Assembly (NCBI GenBank): GCA_015233115.1
Contig: JADFYJ010000012.1
Span: forward strand, 15,557-79,556
Reading direction: 5' to 3'
Source: Candidatus Omnitrophota bacterium
GTDB taxonomy: Bacteria > Omnitrophota > Gorgyraeia > Zapsychrales > Zapsychraceae
DNA: 64,000 bases
Shown: positions 3,048 through 64,000 of the stretch, piece after piece
Layout: each line of letters opens with the position of its first letter
How positions within the stretch are numbered: the stretch's first letter is position 1
The notes under the pieces: generated by a model
Database searches by the model: none
Told to the model about the DNA's origin: nothing
The model's input: the letters and a program-made list of their open reading frames with translations, nothing else
Translations under genes and position numbers: made by a program

Positions 3048-3095
3048 CATGGACCACCGCGTCGGTGGACCAAAGGCCCACCGACGCGGTGATTT
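3048..3095. terminator. Bidirectional intrinsic terminator between convergent genes
   Basis: Perfect inverted repeat caccgcgtcggtgg / ccaccgacgcggtg with an aaaggc loop, flanked by T/A runs, between the CvpA-like stop and the mnmE stop. Confidence 0.55.
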
Positions 3096-4497: not shown

Positions 4498-4600
4498 ACA
4501 TTAATCCTCAAAAAACCGATTATTTTTATTACGGGCGATCAGGAGATCGACCCTACGAAAAAAATCGCGTGCATGAAAATTAGGTTTGGATTTAAATCTA

Positions 4601-4648
4601 ATCCCCGAGCGAGTTTCCTTGGCGCTTCGCCAAGGTTGTTTGAGCGAA
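4601..4648. repeat. Conserved hairpin element, copy 1 (TCCCCGAGCGAGTTTCCTTGGCGCTTCGCCAAGGTTGTTTGAGCGAAG), embedded in a locus-specific inverted flank.
   Basis: Near-identical to 10634..10681. The stem differs by a compensatory pair (G..C here, C..G in copy 2). Flanks gatttaaatctaatcc / ggattaggtttaaata are inverted repeats. Confidence 0.6.
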
Positions 4649-4709
4649 GGATTAGGTTTAAATACAAACCGTCCCAACCCACGCGCTATATCAACCGCGG
4701 CATACTCCG

Positions 4710-7796: not shown

Positions 7797-7827
7797 AAGG
7801 GGCAATAAAAATATATTGCCCCCAAAT
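7797..7827 (-). terminator. Intrinsic terminator downstream of rpsU
   Basis: ggggcaat / attgcccc stem with an 8-nt loop, followed on the minus strand by a U-run (ttttttatttttt). Confidence 0.5.
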
Positions 7828-7840
7828 TTACTTAAACACC

Positions 7841-7999
7841 TTAATGTTTTTTTGCTTTATGACGTTTTTTTTCTGACGGTTTAGAGTAAAAACGGCGTTC
7901 TTTTAACTCCATTAAAAAACCGTCTTTCATACAAGCTTTTTTAAAAAGGCGCATAGCCTTTTCAAAATTCAATGAATCATTAACTTTTACTTCAATCAC
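7841..7999 (-). CDS. rpsU: 30S ribosomal protein S21 (bS21), GTG start
   Basis: 52-aa frame, so absent from the >=60-aa ORF track. VIEVKVNDSLNFEKAMRLFKKACMKDGFLMELKERRFYSKPSEKKRHKAKKH matches the S21 consensus (ALRRFKk.C.K.G.l.E.rrR.fYEKPSE.rKR). SD AAGGTGGTGA upstream of the GTG at 7999. Confidence 0.75.
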   Translation of the reverse strand: MIEVKVNDSLNFEKAMRLFKKACMKDGFLMELKERRFYSKPSEKKRHKAKKH

Positions 8000-8073
8000 G
8001 CGAAATCACCACCTTAAGATATTATTTATTTTGTGACAATGTAACAGTGTAACAGTGTGACAATGATTAAAAA

Positions 8074-8376
8074 CTATATCGCGCTCGCGCCGGTTTGGCC
8101 ATCGCGGATGCGGATTATATTCGACATATCAATTACGGCGATTTTTCCGTCGCCGGTAACACCGGTCCGGGCATACTTGCGGATCGTCTCGACAATTTTA
8201 TCTACTTGAAATTCATCCGCGTAAATATCCAGCTTCATTTTTTCCTGAAGGCCGTTGCGATGATGCCCAAATCCTTTCGCTTCAGTCACAGTCAATCCGC
8301 CAATGCCTGAGTCTTCCAGAGCTCGGAATACTTCTTCGAATTTTTCTTTTCTAACGATCGCTTCGATCTTTTTCAT
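8074..8376 (-). CDS. Nitrogen regulatory protein P-II family
   Basis: 100 aa. MKKIEAIVR...GLTVTEAKGFGHHRNG...DGKIAVIDMSNIIRIRDG matches GlnB/GlnK signatures. No adjacent amt or glnA. Confidence 0.8.
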   Translation of the reverse strand: MKKIEAIVRKEKFEEVFRALEDSGIGGLTVTEAKGFGHHRNGLQEKMKLDIYADEFQVDKIVETIRKYARTGVTGDGKIAVIDMSNIIRIRDGQTGASAI

Positions 8377-10569: not shown

Positions 10570-10633
10570 GCTTGCCCCCTTTTAATTAAACCTAAAGTTA
10601 CATTTAAAATTTTGCGAAATTGGCTTTTGTGTA

Positions 10634-10681
10634 TTCCCGAGCGAGTTTCCTTGCCGCTTCGGCAAGGTTGTTTGAGCGAAG
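10634..10681. repeat. Conserved hairpin element, copy 2 (TTCCCGAGCGAGTTTCCTTGCCGCTTCGGCAAGGTTGTTTGAGCGAAG).
   Basis: Matches copy 1 at 4601..4648 except for the compensatory G/C swap in the stem. Flanked by inverted repeats cttttgtgtatt / aatatacaaaag. Confidence 0.6.
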
Positions 10682-10723
10682 AATATACAAAAGTTAAATT
10701 CGTAAAATTTTACTTCTGCCAAT

Positions 10724-11626
10724 TTAAGCTTTCATAAACGCAGCATAAATTTTCTTACGATTTTCTATGTCTTGCAACGTCAGCTTAGCCGTCTTTTCCA
10801 TCGCAAAACCTTCCACATTAAATGACGAGCACATCGTCGCGTAAATGAGAGCTTTGCGGATTTCCTTTTCATTAATTTTCTTCACTTTACTCAAATATCC
10901 CATCAAGCCGCCGGCAAACGTATCGCCCGCGCCAGTCGGATCCACAACTTTTTCAACCGGGAAAGCGGGAAAACCACACATAAAAGCTTTAGAATAAAAC
11001 AGCACACCATGTTCGCCCTTTTTAACCACGACGAATTTCGGGCCTAAAGCAGCTAAGGCTTTCGCGGCCTTGATTAAATTTGTTTCACCCGTAATATCCT
11101 GCGCTTCTTTATCATTCGCGACGAACAAATCAACCTTTTTAATCAATTTAATCAGCGCGTCTTTCTTAATATTAATCCACAGATTCATACTGTCTAAACC
11201 GACCAGCCTGGGCAATTTCATCAGCGATAAAAATTCATCCTGCACTTCCGGATCAATATTGCCTAAAAACACATTCGGAATATTTTTTTGCGCTTCGGAA
11301 ACTACCGGCTTATATTGTCCTAACACGCCTAATACTGTCGCGTGCGTGATAGCCGCGTTTAAATTCTCTTTTTTATATTCCCCATCCCATTGAAACGTTT
11401 CACCTTCATAAACGATAACCGATGAAATATCTATGCCTTTGGTTTTTAAAAAATTCCAGTACTTCTTCGGGAAATCCTTCCCTACATTCGCCGCAATCGA
11501 CACCTTCGTAAACAAGCTGGCGCTCATGGAAAAATGAGACGCTGACCCGCCTAACAATCCCCTTTTTTCTCCAGCCGGTGTTTTTAAATTATCTAAAGCC
11601 ACTGTCCCTGTAACAATTAAACTCAT
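10724..11626 (-). CDS. PfkB-family carbohydrate kinase
   Basis: 300 aa. DPTGAGDTFAGG ATP-binding signature and ribokinase-like fold motifs. Confidence 0.7.
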   Translation of the reverse strand: MSLIVTGTVALDNLKTPAGEKRGLLGGSASHFSMSASLFTKVSIAANVGKDFPKKYWNFLKTKGIDISSVIVYEGETFQWDGEYKKENLNAAITHATVLGVLGQYKPVVSEAQKNIPNVFLGNIDPEVQDEFLSLMKLPRLVGLDSMNLWINIKKDALIKLIKKVDLFVANDKEAQDITGETNLIKAAKALAALGPKFVVVKKGEHGVLFYSKAFMCGFPAFPVEKVVDPTGAGDTFAGGLMGYLSKVKKINEKEIRKALIYATMCSSFNVEGFAMEKTAKLTLQDIENRKKIYAAFMKA

Positions 11627-11730
11627 AAATAATCCTTTTCGCTTTGTTTGAATATCTTCGGTTGATGGTTTTTAGTTTTTGGTCAATGATCTCGTAATCA
11701 ATCGCTTTTCTCAGTTACTCTGTTATTCGC

Positions 11731-12840
11731 TCACTTTGTTACTTTAAATTTCTCCCCTACCGCAATTCTTTCTTTTAACGGCGGATGATCATAAAAAAAT
11801 AATTTTTCCATGAGCGATGGATTCTCTTTGGCTAAATTCATCTCTCCCAGTTTTTTCATAAGAGAAATAAAATCCGCCGGCTTTTGCGTCATGGTCAGGC
11901 AAAACAAATCCGCCTGCTTTTCCAAATACCGGCTGAAAGCGTTCAGCGGAATGGCCGTGGCCAAACTGAACACCACGAAGGCTACCGTGATCATGGGCAA
12001 AAACGCGATATCATCAATCCCCCTTAAATGAAAAGCCCCGACTGAATAATTCAAAAATAACGCAATCAAATAAAATCCCACAAAAATGACGATCCCGTTC
12101 ACGATCAACAATTTAAAAATATCCCGATGTACATAATGCCCTAATTCGTGAGCTACCACCGCCTCGATTTCATCAACAGTGTATTGGTTTACCAATGTGT
12201 CCCCTAACACGACCCGGCGGGTACGGCCTATGCCACAAACAAACGCGTTAGCTTTTTTAGTTTTTTGCGACATATCAATCATGTAAACATCTTGTAAAAA
12301 AACTTTACATTTCTTGAACATGTCAAAGATGCGATCCTTTAAAGACGCGTTATTGATCGGCACATATTTGTAAAAAATCGGAATAATAACATTCGGCGTG
12401 ATCTTGGCCATGATGACCGCCATAAAAACCCAAAATATCCACGCGCAGATCCACCAACCAGAAGGAAAATGTCTCAAGAAAAAATATACGACTTCCACCA
12501 AAACCACGACCATCACTAAACCTAATGCCGACTGTTTGAGATCATCCGTCCACCATTGAAAAAAATTTTGGTTAGATAACTGAAATTTGTGTTCCCAGAT
12601 ATATCCGAGGAAGAAATTAAGCGGAAGATGCAAAAGATATAACAGTGACGAGAATAAAAAAACATACAGCCCATTCGCGATCCAAAAGTTGGACGATATG
12701 ACAAAAGTCCAATTACGGACGGTCAAACTCCAGCCCGCAAAGAAAAAAATCATTAAAAACGCGAAATCCAAAAATAACCCGGAAAAAAACATCCGGTTTT
12801 TAACGCGATGATATTGATCAGATCGAGCCGCTGGCATCAT
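11731..12840 (-). CDS. M48-family zinc metallopeptidase (HtpX/Ste24-like), polytopic membrane protein
   Basis: 369 aa. N-terminal TM helices and HELGHYVHRD (HExxH). ATGA overlap with the upstream TPR gene. Confidence 0.7.
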   Translation of the reverse strand: MMPAARSDQYHRVKNRMFFSGLFLDFAFLMIFFFAGWSLTVRNWTFVISSNFWIANGLYVFLFSSLLYLLHLPLNFFLGYIWEHKFQLSNQNFFQWWTDDLKQSALGLVMVVVLVEVVYFFLRHFPSGWWICAWIFWVFMAVIMAKITPNVIIPIFYKYVPINNASLKDRIFDMFKKCKVFLQDVYMIDMSQKTKKANAFVCGIGRTRRVVLGDTLVNQYTVDEIEAVVAHELGHYVHRDIFKLLIVNGIVIFVGFYLIALFLNYSVGAFHLRGIDDIAFLPMITVAFVVFSLATAIPLNAFSRYLEKQADLFCLTMTQKPADFISLMKKLGEMNLAKENPSLMEKLFFYDHPPLKERIAVGEKFKVTK

Positions 12841-14418: not shown

Positions 14419-14599
14419 AGTGACCGAGTAACAGAGTAACCGAGTAACAAAGAAAAAGCTTAAAAACCAAAATGAAACAAAAAAATAATTAAAAAACACA
14501 AACAATAAAATCTCTAATTTTTTTACATTTAAATTCTTTATCGTCAATCGTTTTTCTCTGTCACTCGGTTACTCGGTTACTCGGTTACTTTGTTACTTG
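14419..14599. repeat. Inverted arrays of a 9-nt periodic repeat (GTAACCGAG family) bracketing a ~100-nt AT-rich core.
   Basis: Left arm tagtgaccgagtaacagagtaaccgagtaacaaag. Right arm ctctgtcactcggttactcggttactcggttactttgttacttg. Confidence 0.7.
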
Positions 14600-14601
14600 T
14601 T

Positions 14602-16105: not shown

Positions 16106-17068
16106 TCATCTCTCCATATAGACCACATTTTCCGCAGTGAATATCGCGGTGTGGCGTGAAGGAACGCGCGTTTTTTTGCGCAAAGTATATGAGGGAACCA
16201 TTAAAACCGGGCGGAAAGATTCTTTGGTGGCTGTGAGATTCGGTATACCCGTATCATCCATCGCGTTCAATAATTTATATGGACGGACTTGTGCATCATT
16301 ACAAAATTCACGGAAAATATACGTCGGTAAACCCTTCATGGAAAGATCAGCCACTTCTAGAACTACGCAAAACATATCCTTGGTCAATGGGTACCCAAAA
16401 GTATACGCACAAATTTTACCTTCCACCTTAACGACTCGCCCTACCATCCCTAACAACTCAAAATTTTCAAAAACCGTTTTATTGACAGTAATATTTTCCT
16501 CCAGCATCAAATTATACAAATCATCCTGACCTGTTGAACCACGCTCCTCGGTCCAGTCCCGCAATAATTTCAGGCATTCGCCGGACATGGATTTTTCATA
16601 CGGCAAAAATTGACAAGACGGATAAACATTCACAAAGCGATTATATTCTGACCGTTTGGATTTATATCTATTCCCGACCAAACCGGCGATATCTTCCGTC
16701 CGGTAACAATATTCTTTTAATTTCAAAGACTGTTCATGTTTTTCCGGAGCAGAGCCGTAAGTCATGCCAATGCCCACATTTTCAATCCGGGTCACAGTTT
16801 TGTCTGTATTGCGCTCATTCATAATGCGAAAACAAGTTTTAATGGCTTCCGGATTGGGGGATGAGGCTAAAGGCGGAAAATATAAAAATGATCCCATATT
16901 ATTTTTCGCAAACACGCACAAACTTTCTTTAATGATTCTGAAATCAAACGCGAAGAAATCTTTCCATAAAAATAAATTCACAAACGACAAAGCCGATAAA
17001 TAATGCGGCTTACGCTGTAAATAAGTATTGATTAACGCGCGTTTTGAAAGTAAATCGTCGGTTGACAT
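16106..17068 (-). CDS. DUF2156-like protein (resembles the C-terminal domain of lysyl-phosphatidylglycerol synthases)
   Basis: 320 aa. Weak similarity only (LSALSFVNLFLWKDFF...). Treat as a hypothetical protein. Confidence 0.3.
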   Translation of the reverse strand: MSTDDLLSKRALINTYLQRKPHYLSALSFVNLFLWKDFFAFDFRIIKESLCVFAKNNMGSFLYFPPLASSPNPEAIKTCFRIMNERNTDKTVTRIENVGIGMTYGSAPEKHEQSLKLKEYCYRTEDIAGLVGNRYKSKRSEYNRFVNVYPSCQFLPYEKSMSGECLKLLRDWTEERGSTGQDDLYNLMLEENITVNKTVFENFELLGMVGRVVKVEGKICAYTFGYPLTKDMFCVVLEVADLSMKGLPTYIFREFCNDAQVRPYKLLNAMDDTGIPNLTATKESFRPVLMVPSYTLRKKTRVPSRHTAIFTAENVVYMER

Positions 17069-28576: not shown

Positions 28577-28627
28577 ATAAATAGGGGAACGAGTATTAAT
28601 TTTCGAAAAAGACATGTTGACTGGAAT

Positions 28628-28962
28628 GCGACTAGATTGCCTTCGGCTTCGCCTGCGGATTGATTGCTTTTCTAAACTTACGTTTTGGAAGCAATCAATA
28701 GAACTCGCAAAATCCTACGGATTTTTGCGAAGCAATCTGTGGGCCAGCACCAAATATAAAAGCCCCCTCTCAAAAGAGGGGTAACATTTGAATTTTAACT
28801 CGATTTCGACTCGATTACCTTCGGCTTCGCCTGCGGATTGATTGCTTTTCTAAACTTACGTTTTGGAAGCAATCAATAGAACTCGCAAAATCCTACGGAT
28901 TTTTGCGAAGCAATCTGTGGGCCAGCACCAAATATAAAAGCCCCCTCTCAAAAGAGGGGGCT
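28628..28962. repeat. Perfect tandem duplication (period 178 nt; ~156-nt unit plus 22-nt spacer) of a hairpin-rich element, each unit ending in a terminator-like hairpin.
   Basis: Units 28628-28783 and 28806-28961 are identical over ~145 nt (ccttcggcttcgcctgcggattgattgcttt...gccccctctcaaaagagggg). Internal 11-bp stem gattgattgctt/aagcaatcaat and stem cgcaaaatcc/ggatttttgcg. Confidence 0.7.
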
Positions 28963-28971
28963 TTTATATTT
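28931..28971. terminator. Bidirectional intrinsic terminator after tRNA-Asp
   Basis: gccccctc-tcaaaa-gagggggc stem-loop with U-runs on both strands (ttttatattt), immediately 3' of the tRNA-Asp CCA end. Confidence 0.6.
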
Positions 28972-29048
28972 GGCGGACCCGACGAGATTTGAACTCGCGA
29001 TCTCAAGCGTGACAAGCTTGCATGTTAACCAGACTACACCACGGGTCC
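28971..29048 (-). tRNA. tRNA-Asp (anticodon GTC), CCA encoded
   Basis: Cloverleaf folded by hand: acceptor GGACCCG/CGGGTCC, anticodon stem CAAGC/GCTTG with loop TTGTCAC, T-loop TTCAAAT. 78 nt. Confidence 0.85.
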
Positions 29049-63400: not shown

Positions 63401-64000
63401 GCAATATCGTCGACATCCAGCTATTCGTTTGCGTCTGAATGCGCTTTAAAGCATCTAATATTTCTTTTTCCCCTTCAGGTTTGCCCTTTGACCCGTATTT
63501 TTCATTCAAATAATTTTCTACAAGTAACCGCTGTTGCTTTGAAAGATCGGCAAAAAGATCTTGGTCTGGTCTTTCTTTCGCTTTCCCTTTATTCCCGCTT
63601 TTTTGCTCTCGTATATATTTTTCATAAATGGTTCGTAATAATTCAAAAAATTGAATGTCCGTGTCTGTACCATTCAAAGCACTCAGCTCCACAAAAAGAA
63701 CTTGTTCCCAATCAATGCCTTGTTCACGGATTCTAAAAAACACATCTATCAAAGCAACAAGCCTCACTTTTACTCTATCCAGAGGTATTGTTAAACCTCT
63801 GGCCGCAATTTCGAAGAAAATCAAACCTATCGAAGGGGATATCCCAAAATTAGTCGCTAAAATAAAATTCAATTCCATGATTTGTTTTTCAAATTCTACT
63901 TCAGCGTCCTCAGTTGACTTCCTCTCTGCCTGGAGAGCGCCGTCCAACTTATTTTTTTTATAAATATTAAAAAATCCAGCAATGATCAAAAGCCCAACAC
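36495..64000 (-). CDS. Giant multidomain polytopic membrane megaprotein (>=9,164 aa). The 5' end runs off the window; the first in-window start-like codon is TTG at 63989 and the frame is still open to position 64000.
   Basis: Single uninterrupted 27.5-kb reading frame, impossible by chance in ~40% GC DNA. Recognisable enzyme motifs at many positions (listed as sub-features below). More than 10 hydrophobic helices. No recognisable adhesin or RTX-type repeats. Confidence 0.8.
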   Translation of the reverse strand, partial: VGLLIIAGFFNIYKKNKLDGALQAERKSTEDAEVEFEKQIMELNFILATNFGISPSIGLIFFEIAARGLTIPLDRVKVRLVALIDVFFRIREQGIDWEQVLFVELSALNGTDTDIQFFELLRTIYEKYIREQKSGNKGKAKERPDQDLFADLSKQQRLLVENYLNEKYGSKGKPEGEKEILDALKRIQTQTNSWMSTILQGLVLEIALYSSKKHEVQPRVEFILDFLNRLHEQNIDCEKVFNNEFFEAYNLEGGEDIGKFNKILVSIYNEKILNQERERDKANREREQQQRAKREEKERQEQEERRKREEKRQHEEEKKSEEQKNQRRSRNNGHEAPAFEVLGLQKGASWAEVKAARNKLAKELHRDKNTHLPKEEQLKKEEQLKEVLVVYEHIKIWMNSAVCFWGTVWFGIYFLRRGGRSLLRQAVEILKAFIKEYGLFKGFYKALTAPLATPNSHDIAFKHLSRLYQQAIDVHEQAHLEGASEKEAYLVNMGKIIKKRSDIQGQASINCASTIQKFKDNKDNLDATIEELDHGAFYGIVADEVIEEAVRRLKIKTLEFMRASISLVDHGYNLTDRKSFPCAVFSKAVRISSEKTKEIYPQLISIEVGGSLDFLAAGLKKIGVEKFGDFDFNVNLLRDAADEDVDNMLEFFAQTLNGFIKEWDMNFENIKRMIPERSIADISFGTMFIKEVDFFFRYFDQANLTDLDLREQIRDYLIERASEFDSLFWIRHHDQSGRLVSKQFTLKDNPRKYILKYLAYEYYFGGSKGREFFNEIRDKYLECAEDEYYSLGELIGRSDRLDKLLRSVRYLSKPQFKIHTENLDFSFLVRDGEDNYGELDSIFDVDEAKVVLGDVLGLSEVKISEIFQSEDLNTVVVELGEQPTGSFKSWSGYEMIKIARSNSKIDSFVTATTGNQGIAMSYIVKVVGEKLGRKLEAIIYVGANTPETKILKMRELGAKVVQYKDNTDQKFMNYEEAYDAALTQSKLEENRYFVRHANEFTIAGYAALNENIIRQLKLKNMDLNRAVVIAPVGSGGFASGVTLAFKRENSRTKIFLVQTERTKHAYCSLKAGKLVGYYTDYSGRLAEDSLDTKVLEPTAFEVLNALSDGVITVSSKHIYDAAKEFLFAGIAAEGGAVTPYVALQNLKEYLIRIGVKHVVLMLTGANSKACYQTKIDAILEQTKNVVQANAPPATQQEGFVDIKFIESEVPTEKPSAVENAIFRKIQNGPGVITVLNDKKEEVIRRTITVAGIASLAKNFLVSFLAQRDALPAKVDWIMAFGNEYLETVFETARLYLDGKADAIMFVGGIGHSTVNLVEEAAKYLQISTDKLSGLAEAEIMEQVFRAYLRGEGLSEAEINNIKLYLVTESRNCQENVELARDKIEFLGLPVDKVILIQQPPLQRRMGLTFDKWFRTKYPDVKAFNRAAFIPEGDLLDDLDYLATLIDEAEKLEIYAKPRFNYIPALSFEGVDRGKLPTDIQAAVDQVKQEIGMMQLVEVEDEDVAIKIKVGNKARTSINDPIQIETGSYRSGSSMTGFANEKYEAVIYLKSGEAVVKIKADGREFLVKAGDIIASFSHMDLTFAKDSEYLVYRQTDELAVVADRHEMIEGEQETADGRFIIRDGAIAAEVYRDQDGLLLASIYRETMAMPSKMALITPKSAAIGVGIKEATGQEAMHQHNKDGRSRIEAILVKGGTANAQVSNVQAVEIKDIEVKENETLLLAQFSVHGFEFDHTRMAVIIQEPGRPADKQEAGVNKTCLYLKQIQRELASIGIVDAGNIRLNIEHIFKTPHVGQTLQILRTNGLLTSLLPFLSILDGAHQGYKFHFEGDALQHTIHLFNHFPKLILGESKFILQLAVLFHDISKGHPALQKIDADGQKSFKDQKGRQHNRYSAVMTRRILREIGFGAGVVRDVTWLVNNHCFGGVVRDPKVSFEKLAAVFNHRLYPLLYELIKMDVSTGMVVEEGAGHILFLEEQEKIYRKKLLQNVNALSLFNISENRPAGNGVVISDVSFEKDNQAAQGRVIVFDPVKIDLKLWFDPEGRAYDFSRYAVLEKFAVDHGLQFKEFPGLTVEEFVANKDLIFAVNGHQGNFYLANTLLIVDGQIISKTAHGIGQQEFTPLNGEYVFFVLDSNNLGFRKVTIRNGAAVEDIYDIKNALTGPLLRVNGENRISEIQKACPHIAQHEATWDKNVARFAMSIIGLNKNGKIVQISLRGNPEEKDELGLYDVVKLFDELEIVDAMLLGSSADVQQYVAAEQNKLLTAKTRKGSGLGVDRRPLTSILYGQEKKADGLFGSAQESVIENDMYEQQILETVQKLNLVSVRPCLNKTSLLEVCSQGRQELFSYIEQHSILKNREDVLRVLRAKLANVQKGPNEDKKEEEFVKIYEIIFAQKLNSQNSMVIFSGGTGSNKLTTGLLGQGVNPVMLLNAYDDGKSTGDIRKNFGLLGPSDIAKNWVVLFQDLHPDMTQLLEHRLGRTGSVNYYRQMIMDVTAERNLSNELGRLVDKLNPSMRRIILNYLSAFNARLDEWEQQNGKTYDLRDYGVRNIIFVGAFYFYGGDYHQAINRMIKDFNLKGSIVLNNQEPLWLVAITEQGQLLNCEAEIVDRNLEDEISAIYLVRKTLDQYEMAEFNACCSIVEKKAFMKNRFAIYPQAEQVALDAIKGTNAIVFAPTTFDSSLSPTLITQGIAQAVREKKCLKIVVANLVRERGKLTVGENMRQLQQYLNDGKDTGVDSVLDYVLVDYHGNRTDGVVQAHHIPIDDEYICSMGIEPIKAAISKGGKHDSHLTAEILCSLEGLDDLGYRIFKGRLTHKNLYDLVAKAKDQLRYLLNNPILFDDYEGKIKNIICDLAGIKDIGQYRPLRPVRVVILASGKASRLQSDKPKVLYPIAGRPNLAHLLEATKNIDTKPVLVVREEDEFAINDFLTTYPKYQVEVVVVKTLPGTAVALMSSERILKDFDGDVLLMWGDITNIQDKTLKTALAVHQLLDHTVMTMPTVWEREPYAGLTRNDQGEVEGIFLTKEHPEQKRLFGEHDSSVFIFDKRKVFAYNQKLINDSGVMDGKISELNFLKIIPLLTRLGETVIGIACSDPYEVIGFNTQEEAAQVQQYYYLMRNKANNGRKASINKQLIFDALNSIKNDEQASQVSPENIDRYLYRFNEYLAQGYQGVVVDVDETLTDERGKLPEFIVDQLVDLANKKIYVGIITARTDDSLRNKFLNLILNHARCNLHTLPFFYIYPVNGAYGYRLDRGSVSKFYEKTIPAYVTQAAISLLRTYILAYDEDYSVSKYKIHIWPKKPGNQMNMVQRINQLFDLSGLPLTALRSSSIETSGSITISSKGLNKGTALKHFLKDTSLELDKVVKIGDMAEKEAVDHSLLVGKGSFSVNRYDYESENQIPVSLICKLKRAEATGWLLRQIKFEAIKTAGGSNGYSVVKFIFMAAFMAVSSKAWTRTMYVDSLAGNDLDWAALGCIAIPIGLFAVIFFVGFMIYGYSIQRALWKFFVVALIEDFHHKVKIFRLFKNQPPGIISRDILPSHAVDRIHEYLLLLNGFIYSLLRRAIGFIFYICPVNHWGHFDRRIMINWAANQIHYGVPLFNRYYVDSTYAWALKAGFDKWEARLLASACITTDSYLNFVPFYRSAEYQYLRMHMNMNRKPNGAGDQENDSRIIFAKEMLEKALETAAQKGTSHYQIFYYLGRGVHALQDITAHGDFLPYEDPAWTHDARIDGVDPQGKLIYGLNRLKETKRLTVAYIKEFLDQTRVNAPDKVMAIPADVAGFTPVPLGQVIIRGKNNFKWDETLWAQMNPAYQERLKEIMGFMSHYVTGPPLKTNIIIEPAEINASSMWYDYVENAVHIQAVHLSNDVSLKYSQIMAHHEFILHALLRLKERDAEPLTIELLQNNNLIARNTGDLTDRFFVFSSESALKFELTEKTARTKARDLMGSWSGELSQNPKSLPLEQIEWVLDYLKTKGARALKSAGEYYQIFNERTLELKKSKSSLWEVEKPLAKGVENFLEFLRSMSAPMVLVSGGPIEHKVWELAALNVRQYFEEVYAELSPSSLALGVALFDKKKIVEAVIKQQQIDPRRVLSIGDGRQDARLAKDLGLPFIAVARQSKDAEKLLEVNPSAIIIKDFTDEAKFKEIINRINPQLVIWAWDGTIFVGSDGWREIIAEILLGIQKEAAREIAARKKISVIVPCRSGARLWHPNFHVDGQNSLYEKLAQMKEAFRNHVDTVWEVVFVDDGSPLQETKQLIDQILRSNPDFAEFVKNHQVRTLALEDVLAQEGLSSVDESKKGGAVLYGMRDALRNGADYVFYTDTDLSTDLKQIHLLLDSLVKQTADVVFGSRYVKDAKTQGRSEQARLSSFVFNFFIHSLFPPLKRVSDTQCGFKAFSREALEDILSRAEDRQMSFDVELLFLAAIAGYRLKEVPIVWNEDKKGTSVDLEKDAPIMLSRLMRLRQKMYPGSLLTIAASWFIPIIITAMHGYVYAKELFAQFFIYRNFLKLRVPSFYNADQQYVWNSAQLVLSYREHFNKNPRAAYYFNWASEPTAGAGDVLSNRIAHLWAIRSRYFGELNRGERFEILEKIFAVLIHKTLDEDLWKNAKEILTEMLESFDFEIWAPAFKRCLDSFQREAEKEAWIAVIEAIIPVRGKLENPTLVKVLRQNLLSRQPWIVESAAFILGEMRPVKVSIRRYMRQALQQVKDPEARQTIDDAMVKLYGREGRMLIRRYSAPTEQDLLQGLRTPEAIAAIKGEELIHLAEGNYADDRGKLDSRFSFVKPLDVTRFFTNPIDVHTDSLAGEKILIKSGVDYLIWTEIIAHKFFALLGLPVVKMQRVKVQQRDRFGKLQQTTNAEPDMADVLAMEYAEGYRMGGLWLDAPFHHTAEIQGAFILSLLLGERDRVPKNMLFKRSDDIRGPPVLHIDFGCSLMFRATGGFLPFPASMDALIMQDILRSPRLGSRDIVNEAYGFAAQNEHYLSALVERIGSITDEQIATIVDRSGMPSGEQGLAILAQWIRQLETENKAGRWNRKARYQRMAPINTFHAAIKAGGLAEYIKFALKLRRDALVKMFGKHDAGLSGSPTRSALMALPQVKISIVMPSRAKRITIFSVFEHVQALPINKEIIIVIDGVNKANPAILNQLRSLANQPNVVVIEHPSNMGKGMTVRSALQAATGEIFVVQDSDGEYDPNDIPGLVELFEQPNVDVVYGSRRLEHEPENVPYMRFYFGGRLLTWLTNFLYRSQITDEPTGYKLYRTRLLRQLVLKGEHFELEPEITAKVLRLGHKIIEKQIQWTPRTIEQGKSINWIDGVSAIWTLIKYRFTNKNTFIKSQPLSTENKENTEPEEVSAESKGPEPVNRDNEVLITRDFMEQEVFSLTREYNNKQQQFILKQGAASTKGWRHILARHTIAGKLLRPSGDSIFPQHLSDHQILGLILLTLEKGYHTNTLSGDDCYRYFLTEDESGRFGIEFMHVGVSLRKDSEQGKVWEIINAFPLFGKNNRYKRGELRDFYFWYWRKSIRRSDFSLDINGEHDKVLSNIRLAFRVRGREAEGIRISTAPETPDIIARMLKEGRKKIISSNNGEETRIKIIYDQPFDWQGQAVKEVVFSLDLKERFPGARRYYLTDICVVFGSRGAVSACGYQLPRKVQAVAERIMDTIFKKALIHSNDFKKTYWQFILDGLRKRGINAADLENFANGWNISYMVVSPLSTGTRGKTYGLGVLQNEDFPAEDFAPGRDIFATRSIDEDHKKIQIWVAEGLWYKAPRDLRQEVLAHEAYGAFREAGYEESPELRKAIDEEIEKQAKKNCQIPDEERRDLGLLDLKGSLHARESAFAVLVCPEHKKDEVSPLIVLLQHLRREMIRQYEESMKNSRDEICCNGDMGINRVNMMAEVRQYLDKFGFDNLAEYVADQAEFFDKNIFVLDYALLTSAVAKDIFSVVQTLVRGAGCAVELYVDLVPEMKINIEQVNSGFVEFFMTKEINEVLDSAINHRKGLTGWKDASAIVFGDLLHKLLALPKNSVYVKNLDHVAVFKPRGENKKRIIKIVIKSLDTASIGQSESVCPLFLIDYWAYAQDVESISNSMAVYLSEYTLELSFGCDIQRDSPFYLEPIHPFAGKLPFKKFDAVWVSVNRGNGQQGEFSDPALLDLAPIIMARRVFAWFSLWHDIHRETGWRGLAQLLWHDGCIISALAIYYFLKAITFGYWAPPVETRFAFFEMAQTIDGKIYYHPAFYFLPTAVRQAIITHEETHAKEYKFSFLAVEQELNAYLMEISSASQLIAFIREINRPVQYELIAGSEVLLADGSHGLTYPRTCVYASGLSELILQNRFGPRITLTRKDGWDRSRQYFHQWLEVIFEKRKFYLSFTDGQFSAGYPGQKSDDKLTANDDRQPLPIARIEYLQWYFEQELDDFVLIDITKGEDQKALYDWLGYYPKKTYIGEQDEWDFKKQIYFSKALADKNLTASKWLVKNSQMFPEEEPSTGNAIDESIRYGAYAGYVGFLIYGVARFLIPCALWVDVTCLSVLASMIILPLATASFIESAMDFRLNNFWFQRNNYELIPEFKDLHKARDIRDLYERDPESLHKIEYVKFSRGFGEMFIDFKAMRFVPPFIQKIIYFHATLHYLMGFRDETFAVQMTFCYPMAKKLLFISGGLMIGFLFGFPVTPVSLGYVFGLLLYTMYFSSLATYFVKLRGERRTASGYYYPVSRRRTKLTPAEIDNMISGYVHGRYIIEGQPCRWREWLKGEDNEPQVVGIETPDERSEAVLVIRGNVHVSKIMEETRAALARITKSALVLIIADQGTDQSNVIDRKVQLRLITDKVFEAIKVIRKENAGASYEVVKKASLIKIKSLKGTVLDPDTQNTVWGKISFRQVRLNLNKKSKEQIIEAINKLKPKDINKIAVILRKALNTTARTKYELKFNDINTIEILLQKSMNRPARVKYEVKNVDVRATEYDLTRLRELDHIYRRWISNLAYHTVDRDVFISQPHGHLSRLKSAVDWLISQGYKRAVIAGDIFARKKLWPGEMPSPYTPVLEGGFTVEIFDYLRDLPRSGQKFELVFLAGKSEYLFLQSLFQYDPSLPKQTTSVGIRTKKEDKMNWLTRPVFGGPALWHSLQVLSGKSPEAAKSEKERTEINEARAFNERLKGLANATGESLPVLWARYYRFHPKVLEIARFIIENARLVFYEDLSHRAYLVGSIPKHALMIEELKIIEQKIKNDLRLCMALLEITTQVWDMVSETKSIPVLRSIFLVKIRHQLDAFFDKQHKLDILYGRPLITQNSLHDFVGQLFEFLTELKDREDLISEEMIAKEILDFISVEMTASAKFFEDTFKLVFEGGGTSVWNPDQSAGGLLTDENSDLARQKERLILGIHVAMNEDSFSSRKAANELGDIRIMDSMGNVLLVSVPALQTGAFEAQVVAVPYRRHLEPITWLEEFLGVPLVNKNLVFKKLPDNNILTLDQFNAIVEQITEKHANYRSTLYIEPKFYKQFSWNKVLRNFYVTVFFEDGELVISLCDLQGIYKEPMVQLILSARNRDKIGNNFIRVMEQVIDTKWHGQPGCRGVQEIVQEYDQVINPVQKAKRRWFGMAGIFGNVSENAEQELNVSAQSLKNVEVMPVEKDWLTIDKDVQPNVYAFNKKSERAPPVFIWERFVDGQLQFFFSDCLWEQYFLNAIKDSTRSGKTRLTQAVLLHATLEQVNHLSHDAANSEGLRQDPEALFELYQIYLKYLQMNFAGKCDEEIARVGQILREWAEPLDEFSRIQSWKGLDDHKQIVEHVVQLFRGQLTERLFEAIESIIKLAVDFTWQPCCIHHGMTMDIAKICEEEPLLLEICASLIFKILHQQDTDEFKKAAIAEIIERLIWLSSKIVTADMPHIMELLVQEWSECSPLETLQECFSAYRTQAPPQFGSALSGSKVDLADGLIMKPFAKELYFLEKYGTVIGFVEARLITGHKEMRLMVHVFRVQDTRQGIGEKVLQWAAKQAGEGNYIVVPYPVMDKTFNFMLKNTRQLFDSIEAMSSSKHAYCEIPSSDYRWVNVTSLEEAKALVKLGEQLYIRGKIGFAGSASYIKEFLKRESGLSVRAYVLGAGRGKRARATINMPKPLIEVNGRPIYSYTLDKLLKLEIPVTIITGFGAPALEQSIINRYGKNAPCFHRVSAPDGTGLINTGNNFLFIQDALAADPCEYVLVMNLDDIYPNDVFITTMIQTQCREQAAVVLTVHNQEPLNFGRVIRQSNGSFYQIVEPSRFNETSIAIGKGTIFEQDIPMSEVKAIKECNTNVILFTKSKLLEVLAYFADSQKSFSVGEILKEMRRRNMTVTVANLDEKDKFYSCNSPQEILQAESMIQTWEALEIHKAGDTMLHSYGMVLFAMFGALFALPMLTASPTVLQRIIFYSLWLGFATSSAVTYFKTTRKLAVSSKPQSGISQMIKELILSLVPPQEIVPDFNKKMEEIDQAQKKLNARCAILAGSRSFHSGQTGSILNALLFVIVVAGVIFGSLMVTKNITVVVALFVLVFLAGIFMFSDGKEYWARFVKKFEAKKEKQIQNKKAEQKLNFLQKVEGLKKIFQNIKTHDLAGLKEELEQIEAGLGEIDFRPADIRNITRQIKKWRTAIADEQRNRDRVQKQTEATAEADRLVRLKTENMLRQKEQARQEREHRVQALKQKDERRFNEDYQLFCELSEQMWQLQSIDEAEKMIRTVLDFEEHMHPRLAQEGIILIEDTGEILAYCEEFIRIQNALDLANESTLFDQRLLEPLSAEVSLQNILTHGMTFKSQKSLMCFLIGKRGLSVDKIKLYKGFLRALRDLALVEYLKKSDKFTELPTKEFLNSLSKGLSKTNYENLEIFTNELWNLKREQVLQCVQHFLGSLGYPEEIIVFTKEQIDIYEYQSNEKNGLAAQRFYLSEGARLSSENLLKFLTYDDSFEPAFRLGWTPRLFYRYFKDILANKYFPEDIVMHLVCSRVSFLFAVNDPGTEMKINLANERFSPLDAIHSVPYTIRHESCHFILNRNGYSSVQLKHPQNQLQAWLKEQYLSLDREFTKIFTEQLKYDQLEWLHAQFILNEIMTEAMTVLLFPEGTKKGSKFFEQARWKKIHVYRNLYESLIYRCVVVEMFASMEGQSLSNKKFLMNISSRYYREALKIIGDREKQDKVLDALRKFYKHFSQEDILGFKNRFVRGEIFKS
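38010..38957 (-). other. C-proximal four transmembrane helices followed by a ~150-aa coiled coil, aa ~8345-8660
   Basis: GMVLFAMFGALFALPMLTA, IIFYSLWLGFATSSAVTYF, ILNALLFVIVVAGVIFGSLMV, VVVALFVLVFLAGIFMF, then the E/K/Q/R heptad-rich run KKEKQIQNKKAEQKLNFLQKVEGLKK...REHRVQALKQKDERR. Confidence 0.5.
39090..39800 (-). other. Sugar-phosphate nucleotidyltransferase domain no. 2, aa ~8064-8300
   Basis: VRAYVLGAGRGKRARATINMPKPLIEVNGRPIYSYTLDKL. Confidence 0.6.
40020..40292 (-). other. GNAT-like acetyltransferase motif region, aa ~7900-7990
   Basis: VHVFRVQDTRQGIGEKVLQWAAKQA resembles GNAT motif A (Q/R-x-x-G-x-G/A). Confidence 0.35.
43950..44558 (-). other. Second transmembrane cluster (~4 helices), aa ~6478-6680
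   Basis: YGAYAGYVGFLIYGVARFLIPCALWVDVTCLSVLASMIILPLATASFI; KKLLFISGGLMIGFLFGFPVTPVSLGYVFGLLLYTMYFSSLATYFV. Confidence 0.5.
48090..48737 (-). other. GT2 glycosyltransferase domain no. 2 (DPM1-like), aa ~5085-5300
   Basis: KISIVMPSRAKR...IIIVIDGVN...GKGMTVRSALQAATGEIFVVQDSDGEYDP...VVYGSRR...TGYKLYRTRLL. The nucleotide mapping was verified (DSDGEYD equals 48453-48473). Confidence 0.75.
50730..51443 (-). other. GT2 glycosyltransferase domain no. 1 (DPM1/GtrB-like polyprenyl-phosphate glycosyltransferase type), aa ~4183-4420
   Basis: KISVIVPCRSG...VVFVDDGSP...YGMRDALRNGADYVFYTDTDLS...VVFGSRY...DTQCGFKAF...EVPIVW. Confidence 0.75.
53310..53717 (-). other. Cluster of ~4 transmembrane helices, aa ~3425-3560
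   Basis: VVKFIFMAAFMAVSS, ALGCIAIPIGLFAVIFFVGFMIYGY, YLLLLNGFIYSLLRRAIGFIFYI. Confidence 0.5.
53850..54512 (-). other. HAD-superfamily phosphatase domain (Cof/IIB-like), aa ~3160-3380
   Basis: VVVDVDETLT (DxDxT motif I)...GIITARTDDS...KIGDMAEKEAV (motif IV). Confidence 0.55.
54690..55418 (-). other. Sugar-phosphate nucleotidyltransferase domain no. 1, aa ~2858-3100
   Basis: VRVVILASGKASRLQSDKPKVLYPIAGRPNLAHLLE (GxGxRL plus a PK..l.i.g.P fingerprint). Confidence 0.65.
55710..56807 (-). other. CofD / YvcK (UPF0052) family domain, aa ~2395-2760
   Basis: MVIFSGGTGSNKLTTGL...NAYDDGKSTGDIRKNFGLLGPSDIAKN parallels GGGTG...DDGGSSGrLR...PGDiRN of YvcK/CofD. Confidence 0.65.
58140..58547 (-). other. 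HD-domain metal-dependent phosphohydrolase, aa ~1815-1950
   Basis: QHTIHLFNH...LQLAVLFHDISKGHP (H...HD...K pattern). Confidence 0.65.
60420..61382 (-). other. PLP-dependent enzyme domain of the tryptophan-synthase-beta / cysteine-synthase fold (PALP), aa ~870-1190
   Basis: PTGSFKSWSG (PLP lysine), TATTGNQGIAMSY, VIAPVGSGGFASGVTLAFK. Confidence 0.7.
62844..62984 (-). other. J-like domain (DnaJ N-terminal domain with HRD instead of HPD), aa ~336-382 of the giant protein
   Basis: FEVLGLQKGASWAEVKAARNKLAKELHRDKN follows the J-domain consensus (YeiLGv...As..eIKkAYrkLA.kyHPDKN). Preceded by an E/R/K-rich low-complexity stretch (aa 271-330). Confidence 0.5.

Follow-up and report, generated by a model that had tools for sequence, protein, structure and literature searches.

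The window, as the whole analyzed stretch of 64,000 nucleotides is called here, carries two copies of what is best read as a previously uncatalogued dispersed palindromic hairpin. In the preferred reading, to which a probability of roughly 0.4 is assigned, this is a dispersed palindromic insertion element in which an invariant module of ~48 nt caps a stem unique to each locus and which ends as a gene-end hairpin. Within the module, a closing C-G pair is followed by an irregular, purine-rich internal loop, with C / CG / AG in its 5' strand and AG / CG / AA in its 3' strand, then by a 5-bp helix rich in G·U pairs and last by an apical hairpin whose sequence is free.

The two window copies, W1 and W2, are identical at 46 of 48 bases. 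The first-pass annotation had located copy 1 at 4601-4648 and copy 2 at 10634-10681; the second was read at exactly that position, while the first exists but lies one base further on, at 4602-4649. A 45-nt pattern that tolerates the swapped base pair matches the window exactly twice and gives no match in 100 dinucleotide shuffles, and no third copy was found in the 64-kb window by pattern, repeat and fuzzy searches or with a covariance model. As had been claimed, the sole difference inside the core is a swap of G4622/C4630 for C10654/G10662, which leaves the 8-bp apical stem intact; the second difference between the copies (c4603 versus t10635) falls within the outer stem and is likewise compensated. 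The locus-specific inverted flanks are also real (22 nt, 91% complementary, at W1; 32 nt, 84%, at W2), and each copy forms a rod hairpin of about 90-105 nt in which the 48-base module caps an inverted repeat of 22-32 bp peculiar to that copy (Table 1). The gene context had been named correctly as folC-mnmE and pfkB-...-era, except that the 88-aa ORF called a SemiSWEET has no Pfam match. The MnmE encoded in the window is 100% identical to that of a Candidatus Omnitrophica/Omnitrophota MAG, which identifies the host.

Table 1. Positions of the element copies, their parts and the related loci; positions without a prefix are those of the window.
Feature	Position	Strand	Size or sequence	Basis or remark
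W1 whole rod hairpin (5' arm, conserved center, 3' arm)	4583..4670	+		folding, inverted repeat
W1 inverted repeat	4583-4604 with 4649-4670		22 nt, 91% complementary	inverted-repeat search
W1 conserved center	4604..4649	+		exact pattern match; covariance model R1 78.9 bits; RNAalifold concordant
W1 apical hairpin	4617..4635	+	CCTTGGCG-CTT-CGCCAAGG, 8 bp	G-C at swapped pair
folC-mnmE spacer holding W1	4498..4709		212 nt	not present in nearest relative
W2 whole rod hairpin, 32-nt arms	10605..10712	+		folding, inverted repeat
W2 inverted repeat	10605-10636 with 10681-10712		32 nt, 84% complementary	inverted-repeat search
W2 conserved center	10636..10681	+		exact pattern match; R1 74.9 bits
W2 apical hairpin	10649..10667	+	CCTTGCCG-CTT-CGGCAAGG	C-G at swapped pair
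pfkB / 88-aa ORF spacer holding W2	10570..10723		154 nt	10 nt in relative
Element copy L029	L029:1218-1300			Saccharibacteria MAG
Element copy L091A	L091:5256-5358	-		GC-rich 305-kb metagenome contig
Element copy L091B	L091:5425-5530	+		same GC-rich 305-kb contig; adjoins L091A, divergent orientation
Element copy L107	L107:6783-6860			marine contig; assigned to Acidimicrobiales via its MFS protein
Group 2 repeat	L024 4486-4554			
Group 2 repeat	L009 1729-1791			
Group 2 repeat	L005			
Group 2 repeat	L001			
Group 2 repeat	L065			
Group 2 repeat, plasmid NZ_CP025783.1 (L133)	about 1908-2203 and 7812-8159			

Relatives were sought with one exact-pattern scan each of the GTDB species genomes and of JGI metagenome contigs, the pattern being CCGAGCGAG, a gap and TTTGAGCGAAG. 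Together with a scan of viral contigs this returned about 120 loci, nearly all of them chance matches in coding DNA. Four further elements of the same architecture were recovered from the public scans, which brings the known copies to six. The first-pass annotation had named absence of the element elsewhere as grounds against its reading; relatives are in fact present in other phyla, and the distribution is sporadic (Omnitrophota, Saccharibacteria, Acidimicrobiales and one GC-rich contig). A covariance model built from the six copies, R1, scores the members at 52-79 bits and all other pattern matches at 31 bits or less. No diverged copies were detected in about 0.87 Mb by fuzzy search and R1, and no true member occurs among the viral contigs with either the exact or a relaxed core pattern. 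Furthermore, BLAST of the element against the PLSDB plasmids gave 19-nt chance matches only, and a literature search on the core strings returned unrelated primers only. Rfam 15, at gathering as well as permissive thresholds, holds no family that matches the element in the window or the related loci; its best match on the element is a plant miRNA model (E = 0.055, 19.8 bits against a gathering score of 117), and the only Rfam matches in the window are two tRNAs. Since the 20 bases of the search pattern are identical by construction, their conservation is not evidence, and the family may be more variable than the six copies show.

All copies have the arrangement C-CG-AG-CGAGU ... GUUUG-AG-CG-AA around a variable apical hairpin, with a different outer stem in each. 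From base to tip, the rod consists of the outer stem, a C bulge, CG:CG, a 2x2 AG/AG loop, CGAGU:GUUUG, a small U-rich loop and the apical hairpin. The CGAGU:GUUUG helix has 5 bp, three of them wobble pairs, and the AA faces the C bulge; W1 runs accordingly through the closing C-G pair, C bulge, CG:CG, AGxAG, CGAGU:GUUUG, apical hairpin and AA. RNAalifold and the hand-drawn structure are concordant. Outside the search pattern, the closing C-G pair is found in all six copies, while UUY after GAGCGAG and KUG before UUUG each recur in five of six. The apical hairpin keeps its place and changes its sequence each time, and the outer stems, 14-36 bp long in every copy, are of unrelated sequence, giving whole rods of about 90-120 nt. 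In one copy, L091B, two Watson-Crick pairs of the apical stem appear by eye to be replaced by a tandem G·A/A·G.

When the six copies are aligned, pairing is present in 85.7% of cells and both partners have changed in 12 of 21 pairs, a result that none of 500 shuffles matches; in slid registers the paired fraction falls to 29-44%. The claim of a structured element therefore holds much more strongly across genomes than within the window, both the apical and the outer stems covarying. The G-C/C-G swap had been presented as a covariation signature of a selected structure. A selected, repeated structure beyond chance resemblance is indeed found, but the swap on its own is no signature of selection at the RNA level and is weak evidence, since a single template-switch event during replication is enough to make a change of this kind (PMC8794818). 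Several known motifs were compared by eye and rejected: a kink-turn or L7Ae-type site, which in the standard register has a C-stem, a 3-nt bulge, tandem sheared G·A and A·G pairs and an NC-stem, as the loop here has a bulge of only 1-2 nt before GA and AA instead of GA beside the outer stem, and loop E, hammerhead, boxA/nut and the d(GCGAAGC) mini-hairpin, none of which fits in register. Read by eye, the core is not coding sequence either, its frame and stop position varying among copies.

The history of the element emerges from three loci at which a relative is comparable. The folC/mnmE spacer of 212 nt corresponds to a 26-nt overlap of the two genes (L035) in the nearest genome, GCA_015233195.1, whose MnmE is 77% identical. 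In the same relative (L130), 10 nt separate the pfkB stop from the ATG of the orthologous small ORF, compared with 154 nt in the window. In Acidimicrobiales, the MFS and DnaJ-like genes are 179 nt apart in L107/L125 and show a 4-nt stop overlap in L129, which is 84% identical; the element-bearing spacer occurs in five samples of one population, L107 among them, and more distant relatives have another overlapping gene at the site and no hairpin. Arms and center are thus both missing from the relatives at all three sites. Comparison of filled with empty sites shows that the element, together with its arms, was inserted where genes of compact operons meet.

These empty sites also bear on the proposal that the 48-nt center is a tiny mobile hairpin which inserts into the loops of existing long hairpins such as terminators, the locus-specific flanks being the stem of the old hairpin. 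The insertion sequences IS1397 and ISKpn1 insert into REP loops in this manner. The center has its own closing C-G pair and stacks coaxially on the outer stem, the copies occupy terminator-type positions, and long terminator-like hairpins free of the center exist in the window (21 bp at 28928-28973, 17 bp at 3055-3091). Nevertheless, the proposal is decidedly unlikely: with neither spacer nor hairpin in the relatives at 3/3 loci it needs a two-step history each time, and the 27-36 bp stems of the L091 copies are longer than natural terminators. Because the arms are gone together with the center, the latter was not dropped into a pre-existing terminator at these loci.

Five of the six copies begin 0-40 nt past the stop codon of a gene and are oriented against it. 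L091A, with 27 nt between it and the GBBH-like_N (DUF971) gene downstream, is the neighbor of L091B, which itself follows a gene for an Xer-type recombinase. Of the additional spacer sequence, the longer part always precedes the hairpin when the element is read in its sense direction. Neither a target-site duplication nor a shared flank was recognized around the insertions. At the empty site of L129, GGAACTCGCTT is identical to the core strand over 9 nt (p about 0.006 by our own estimate); as a single case after several looks, it is given no weight. One other repeat-carrying spacer of the window, 104 nt at 11627-11730, can be compared with L130 9579-9998, where yjbQ stands between the M48 peptidase gene and pfkB.

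The origin of the arms can be approached through the age of the copies. The apical stem differs between L091A and L091B within one genome and again in every phylum; as it varies this freely and W1 and W2 are nonetheless almost the same, the two window copies are young duplicates. They share the 48-52 nt center only, their arms and the remainder of their spacers showing no similarity, and the arms of L091A and L091B are likewise dissimilar. Recent duplicates with unrelated arms imply that the arms were not inherited from a donor copy, and they were probably made or acquired at insertion. Elsewhere in the window no significant donor sequence for the arms was found, nor do they derive from the coding sequence on either side. 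Spacer-like captured DNA was rejected as their source: the viral contigs of IMG/VR gave no exact match to the arm consensus of W1, W2 or L091A. One candidate donor, 16653-16676 within a gene for an LPG-synthase-like protein (LPG_synthase_C), matches 20 of the 22 bases of the W1 5' arm, followed by CCCGA; its 31.5 bits reach only the 95th percentile of dinucleotide-shuffled spacers, and it is therefore treated as chance. Short third copies of arm segments were seen just outside some hairpins (W2, GCCAATTT at 10718-10725; L107, 6690-6709; L029, a second GCTTACG..CCGAGCGA). Between the two copies of the GC-rich contig, L091 5400-5426 reads TTGAGCGACGCACCCACCGAGTTCCGC and resembles a degenerate 3'-strand plus 5'-strand junction of the core; it is also similar to the junction of the group 2 repeats described below and may be the remnant of an older or nested copy.

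In the mechanism considered most likely, the self-folding center would prime fold-back or template-switch DNA synthesis behind it during insertion, so that a reverse-complement arm is made in one event. A single event of template switching is documented to yield a perfect stem or a compensatory change, without selection (PMC8794818). The outer stems of the L091 copies are perfect over 27-36 bp. Insertion would split genes that were formerly coupled or overlapping. No gene for a transposase, a reverse transcriptase or an HUH/RAYT protein was found in the window by Pfam analysis of its 29 ORFs. Also weighing against this selfish-insertion reading are the apparently low copy number (six copies only, 1-2 per 64-300 kb), which is unusual for a selfish repeat, and the conserved, non-complementary purine-rich loop with its invariant G·U pairs, which would suit a protein- or RNA-recognition surface better than selfish DNA.

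The strands of the element are not equivalent. In the orientation CCGAGCGAG...GAGCGAAG, termed sense, five of the six copies fold better than on the other strand. As plus-strand RNA, the W1 rod has a minimum free energy of -44.5 kcal/mol (z = -7.7), against -36.7 for the minus strand, and the W2 rod -46.9 (z = -8.6) against -28.9, with four G·U pairs possible on the plus strand only. The corresponding sense and opposite values are -57.2 and -45.4 for L107, -103.5 and -88.9 for L091A, and -80.2 and -73.0 for L091B; in L029 the two are about equal. The outer stems contain 13 G·U pairs in the core-sense orientation and 2 in the opposite one, or roughly 14 to 3 with L029 counted by eye (two-sided binomial p about 0.01, by hand arithmetic). 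In the window the core-sense strand is the plus strand, which is C-rich (GC skew negative throughout) and opposite to the flanking genes. Ordinary deamination bias would favor the strand other than the observed one. The G·U bias, running against that direction, thus points to selection on the single-stranded plus strand or to a footprint of arm synthesis; template-switch synthesis of the arms would leave G·T mispairs on one strand only, as in the observed bias. The earlier suggestion of an attenuator or processing site in the flanking mRNAs is weakened, though not overturned, by the better pairing of the plus strand, which lies opposite the operons.

Selection on the plus strand would fit a family of small structured non-coding RNAs, antisense to their neighbors, in which the purine-rich loop and the G·U helix bind a protein or RNA. 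On this view, helical form is all that the apical hairpin and long outer stem would have to keep, both being free to covary, and the copies would have arisen by duplication. Such a family would account for the better folding of the sense strand (5/6 copies), most marked in W2, for the G·U bias contrary to the expectation from gene orientation and GC skew, for the invariant CGAGU:GUUUG helix, which can form on the sense strand alone, and for the pairs of both stems that change on both sides. The longer part of the spacer also lies where a promoter would sit, 5' of the hairpin in the sense direction, and from reading of the letters TAAAAT (W2) and GAAAAT (W1) hexamers stand ~13 nt upstream of the main stem; however, in a promoter scan the region upstream of W1 held no convincing site and that of W2 only a weak one. 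The sense strand has neither a terminator nor a U-tract after the hairpin, the perfect stems of L091 exceed the usual need of an RNA and resemble fresh DNA palindromes, the loci are not kept in relatives (empty in 3/3), and Rfam has no match. In addition, covariation and a one-strand G·U bias are both obtainable from template switching (PMC8794818). Taken together, an antisense RNA family is judged somewhat unlikely, and it and selfish palindromic insertion are not mutually exclusive.

As for the function of the inserted element, a rod 0-40 nt past a stop codon would, in the preferred reading, provide a gene-end hairpin that could act as a terminator, an insulator or a 3'-end stabilizer. No U-tract consistently follows the hairpin in either orientation, and terminator activity is accordingly put forward as a suggestion: beyond the hairpin, the mRNA strand continues with UUUU at W2 and with UAAUUUUC at W1, and the GC-rich copies have no U-tract. 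A terminator scan of the plus strand flags the inner hairpin plus TTGTTTG alone, which is enclosed in the longer helix.

Another explanation is that the copies are ordinary intrinsic (bidirectional) terminators or classical REP/REPIN sequences whose shared center has no special meaning. REPs have been described from just such positions, past the ends of genes where the ORFs run in one direction or converge (PMC3733652); in addition, the inner hairpin with TTGTTTG is flagged as terminator-like, and A- and T-tracts flank W2 on both sides. The repeated occurrence of one non-palindromic loop of 20+ nt, in an unchanged architecture, in at least three phyla plus a GC-rich contig is hard to reconcile with this, as are the missing GTAG or CGTC tag, the non-conserved arms, the lack of a U-tract at W1, L091, L107 and L029, and the burial of the inner hairpin in a longer helix. 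The explanation is thus considered very improbable.

More far-reaching readings would be a cross-phylum mobile module that makes a new 14-36 bp stem at each insertion by fold-back or template-switch synthesis, or else a family of hairpin RNAs armed with guides; this pair of options is regarded as quite unlikely. As a mobile module, only the 48-nt center may be inherited, which would be an undescribed mode of spread. As a guide RNA, the conserved loop may recruit a factor while the variable arms serve as locus- or target-specific guides.

Further repeats came to light during the analysis. A second family (group 2), of the form CCGAGCGAGGAAC...TGTTTGAGCGAAGCGAGTTCC or with GAGCGAG variants, is intergenic, unannotated and multi-copy in Iodobacter. 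Its members are genuine repeats and have both core strands in common with the element, but their architecture is different and R1 gives them only 18-21 bits. Within the window, a 168-nt tandem duplication (28614-28781 and 28792-28959) is 96% identical between its units and without an Rfam match. The tandem unit ends in a perfect 21-bp hairpin at 28928-28973 that abuts tRNA-Asp (28971-29048), and the region 28614-28973 could represent a duplicated ncRNA or terminator module. Other intergenic families consist of short tandem units facing their own complement (14420-14600, 11710-11744, 1651-1731 and 11648-11683): (GAGTAAC)n at 14420-14455 faces (CGGTTACT)n at 14556-14600, (TTGATGGTTYTTGG)n at 1651-1700 faces 1708-1731, and copies of both the (GAGTAAC)n and the (TTGATGGTTYTTGG)n families occur in the 11627-11730 spacer. 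Finally, the minus strand carries a single giant ORF of 9164 aa at 36495-63989, whose start at 63989 lies 11 bases short of the window end.

Should the insertion reading be correct, compact genomes such as those of Omnitrophota, CPR bacteria and marine Actinobacteria would have a one-step route to new intergenic spacers and to the separation of translationally coupled genes. The element would then represent a class of palindromic elements that inherits the tip of a hairpin and makes its stem anew, and a natural case of sequence-seeded hairpin creation by template switching. It would also call for caution in RNA-motif discovery, as perfect long-stem covariation and even a G·U strand bias may reflect the making of DNA and not selection on RNA. 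If the element were instead an antisense structured RNA, its invariant purine-rich loop would mark a hitherto unrecognized RNA-protein interaction common to very distant phyla.

Among known elements, the closest comparison is with the RAYT-associated REPs and REPINs, which are likewise short extragenic palindromes that form hairpins in ssDNA or mRNA, with wobble pairs or mismatches on one strand, and are presumed to be non-autonomous mobile DNA (PMC3733652, PMC3116915). They are found mostly downstream of coding regions, between genes in the same direction or convergent, just as five of the six copies here stand 0-40 nt past a stop codon. In REPs, however, the whole 20-40 bp palindrome is conserved, an unpaired GTAG/CGTC tag is present and the copies number tens to hundreds (PMC3733652, PMC3116915). 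The arms of a REPIN are the repeat itself, whereas here a non-palindromic center is conserved and the long arms are unique per locus. Neither GTAG/CTAC nor CGTC/GACG occurs in the conserved center, a single CGTC being found beside W1 only, and the 64 kb of genome covered hold two copies, with no transposase among the Pfam matches of the 29 ORFs. The earlier description of the element as REP-like is thus apt for its gene-end location between same-strand or convergent ORFs and fails for the tag and the conserved palindrome.

MITEs resemble the element as intergenic insertions of ~100-200 bp that form long hairpins, can supply terminators or promoters and vary in presence between relatives. MITEs, including Correia/NEMIS, RPE and the small dispersed repeats of cyanobacteria, share terminal inverted repeats and have direct target-site duplications (for a review, see PMC3184786). 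In the element, by contrast, it is the middle that the copies have in common, their inverted repeats differ, and target-site duplications were not seen. Hairpins made by template switching (quasipalindrome mutagenesis) are similar in their perfect arms from one event, their compensatory changes and their strand-asymmetric pairs (PMC8794818). Template switching accounts for the arms but not for the recurring 48-nt non-complementary center, for which a donor copy and targeting or selection are also needed. The attC sites of integrons have conserved boxes (R''/L'' and L'/R') at the base and a variable tip. They are similar to the element in being strand-specific folded single strands, partly conserved and partly specific to the locus or cassette, at gene ends. 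The element has the reverse layout, with a conserved tip, and stands in no integrase or array context, although L091 adjoins the Xer-type recombinase gene. As the defining features of REPs and MITEs are missing and the attC layout is inverted, the element is classed as a variant among palindromic intergenic elements.
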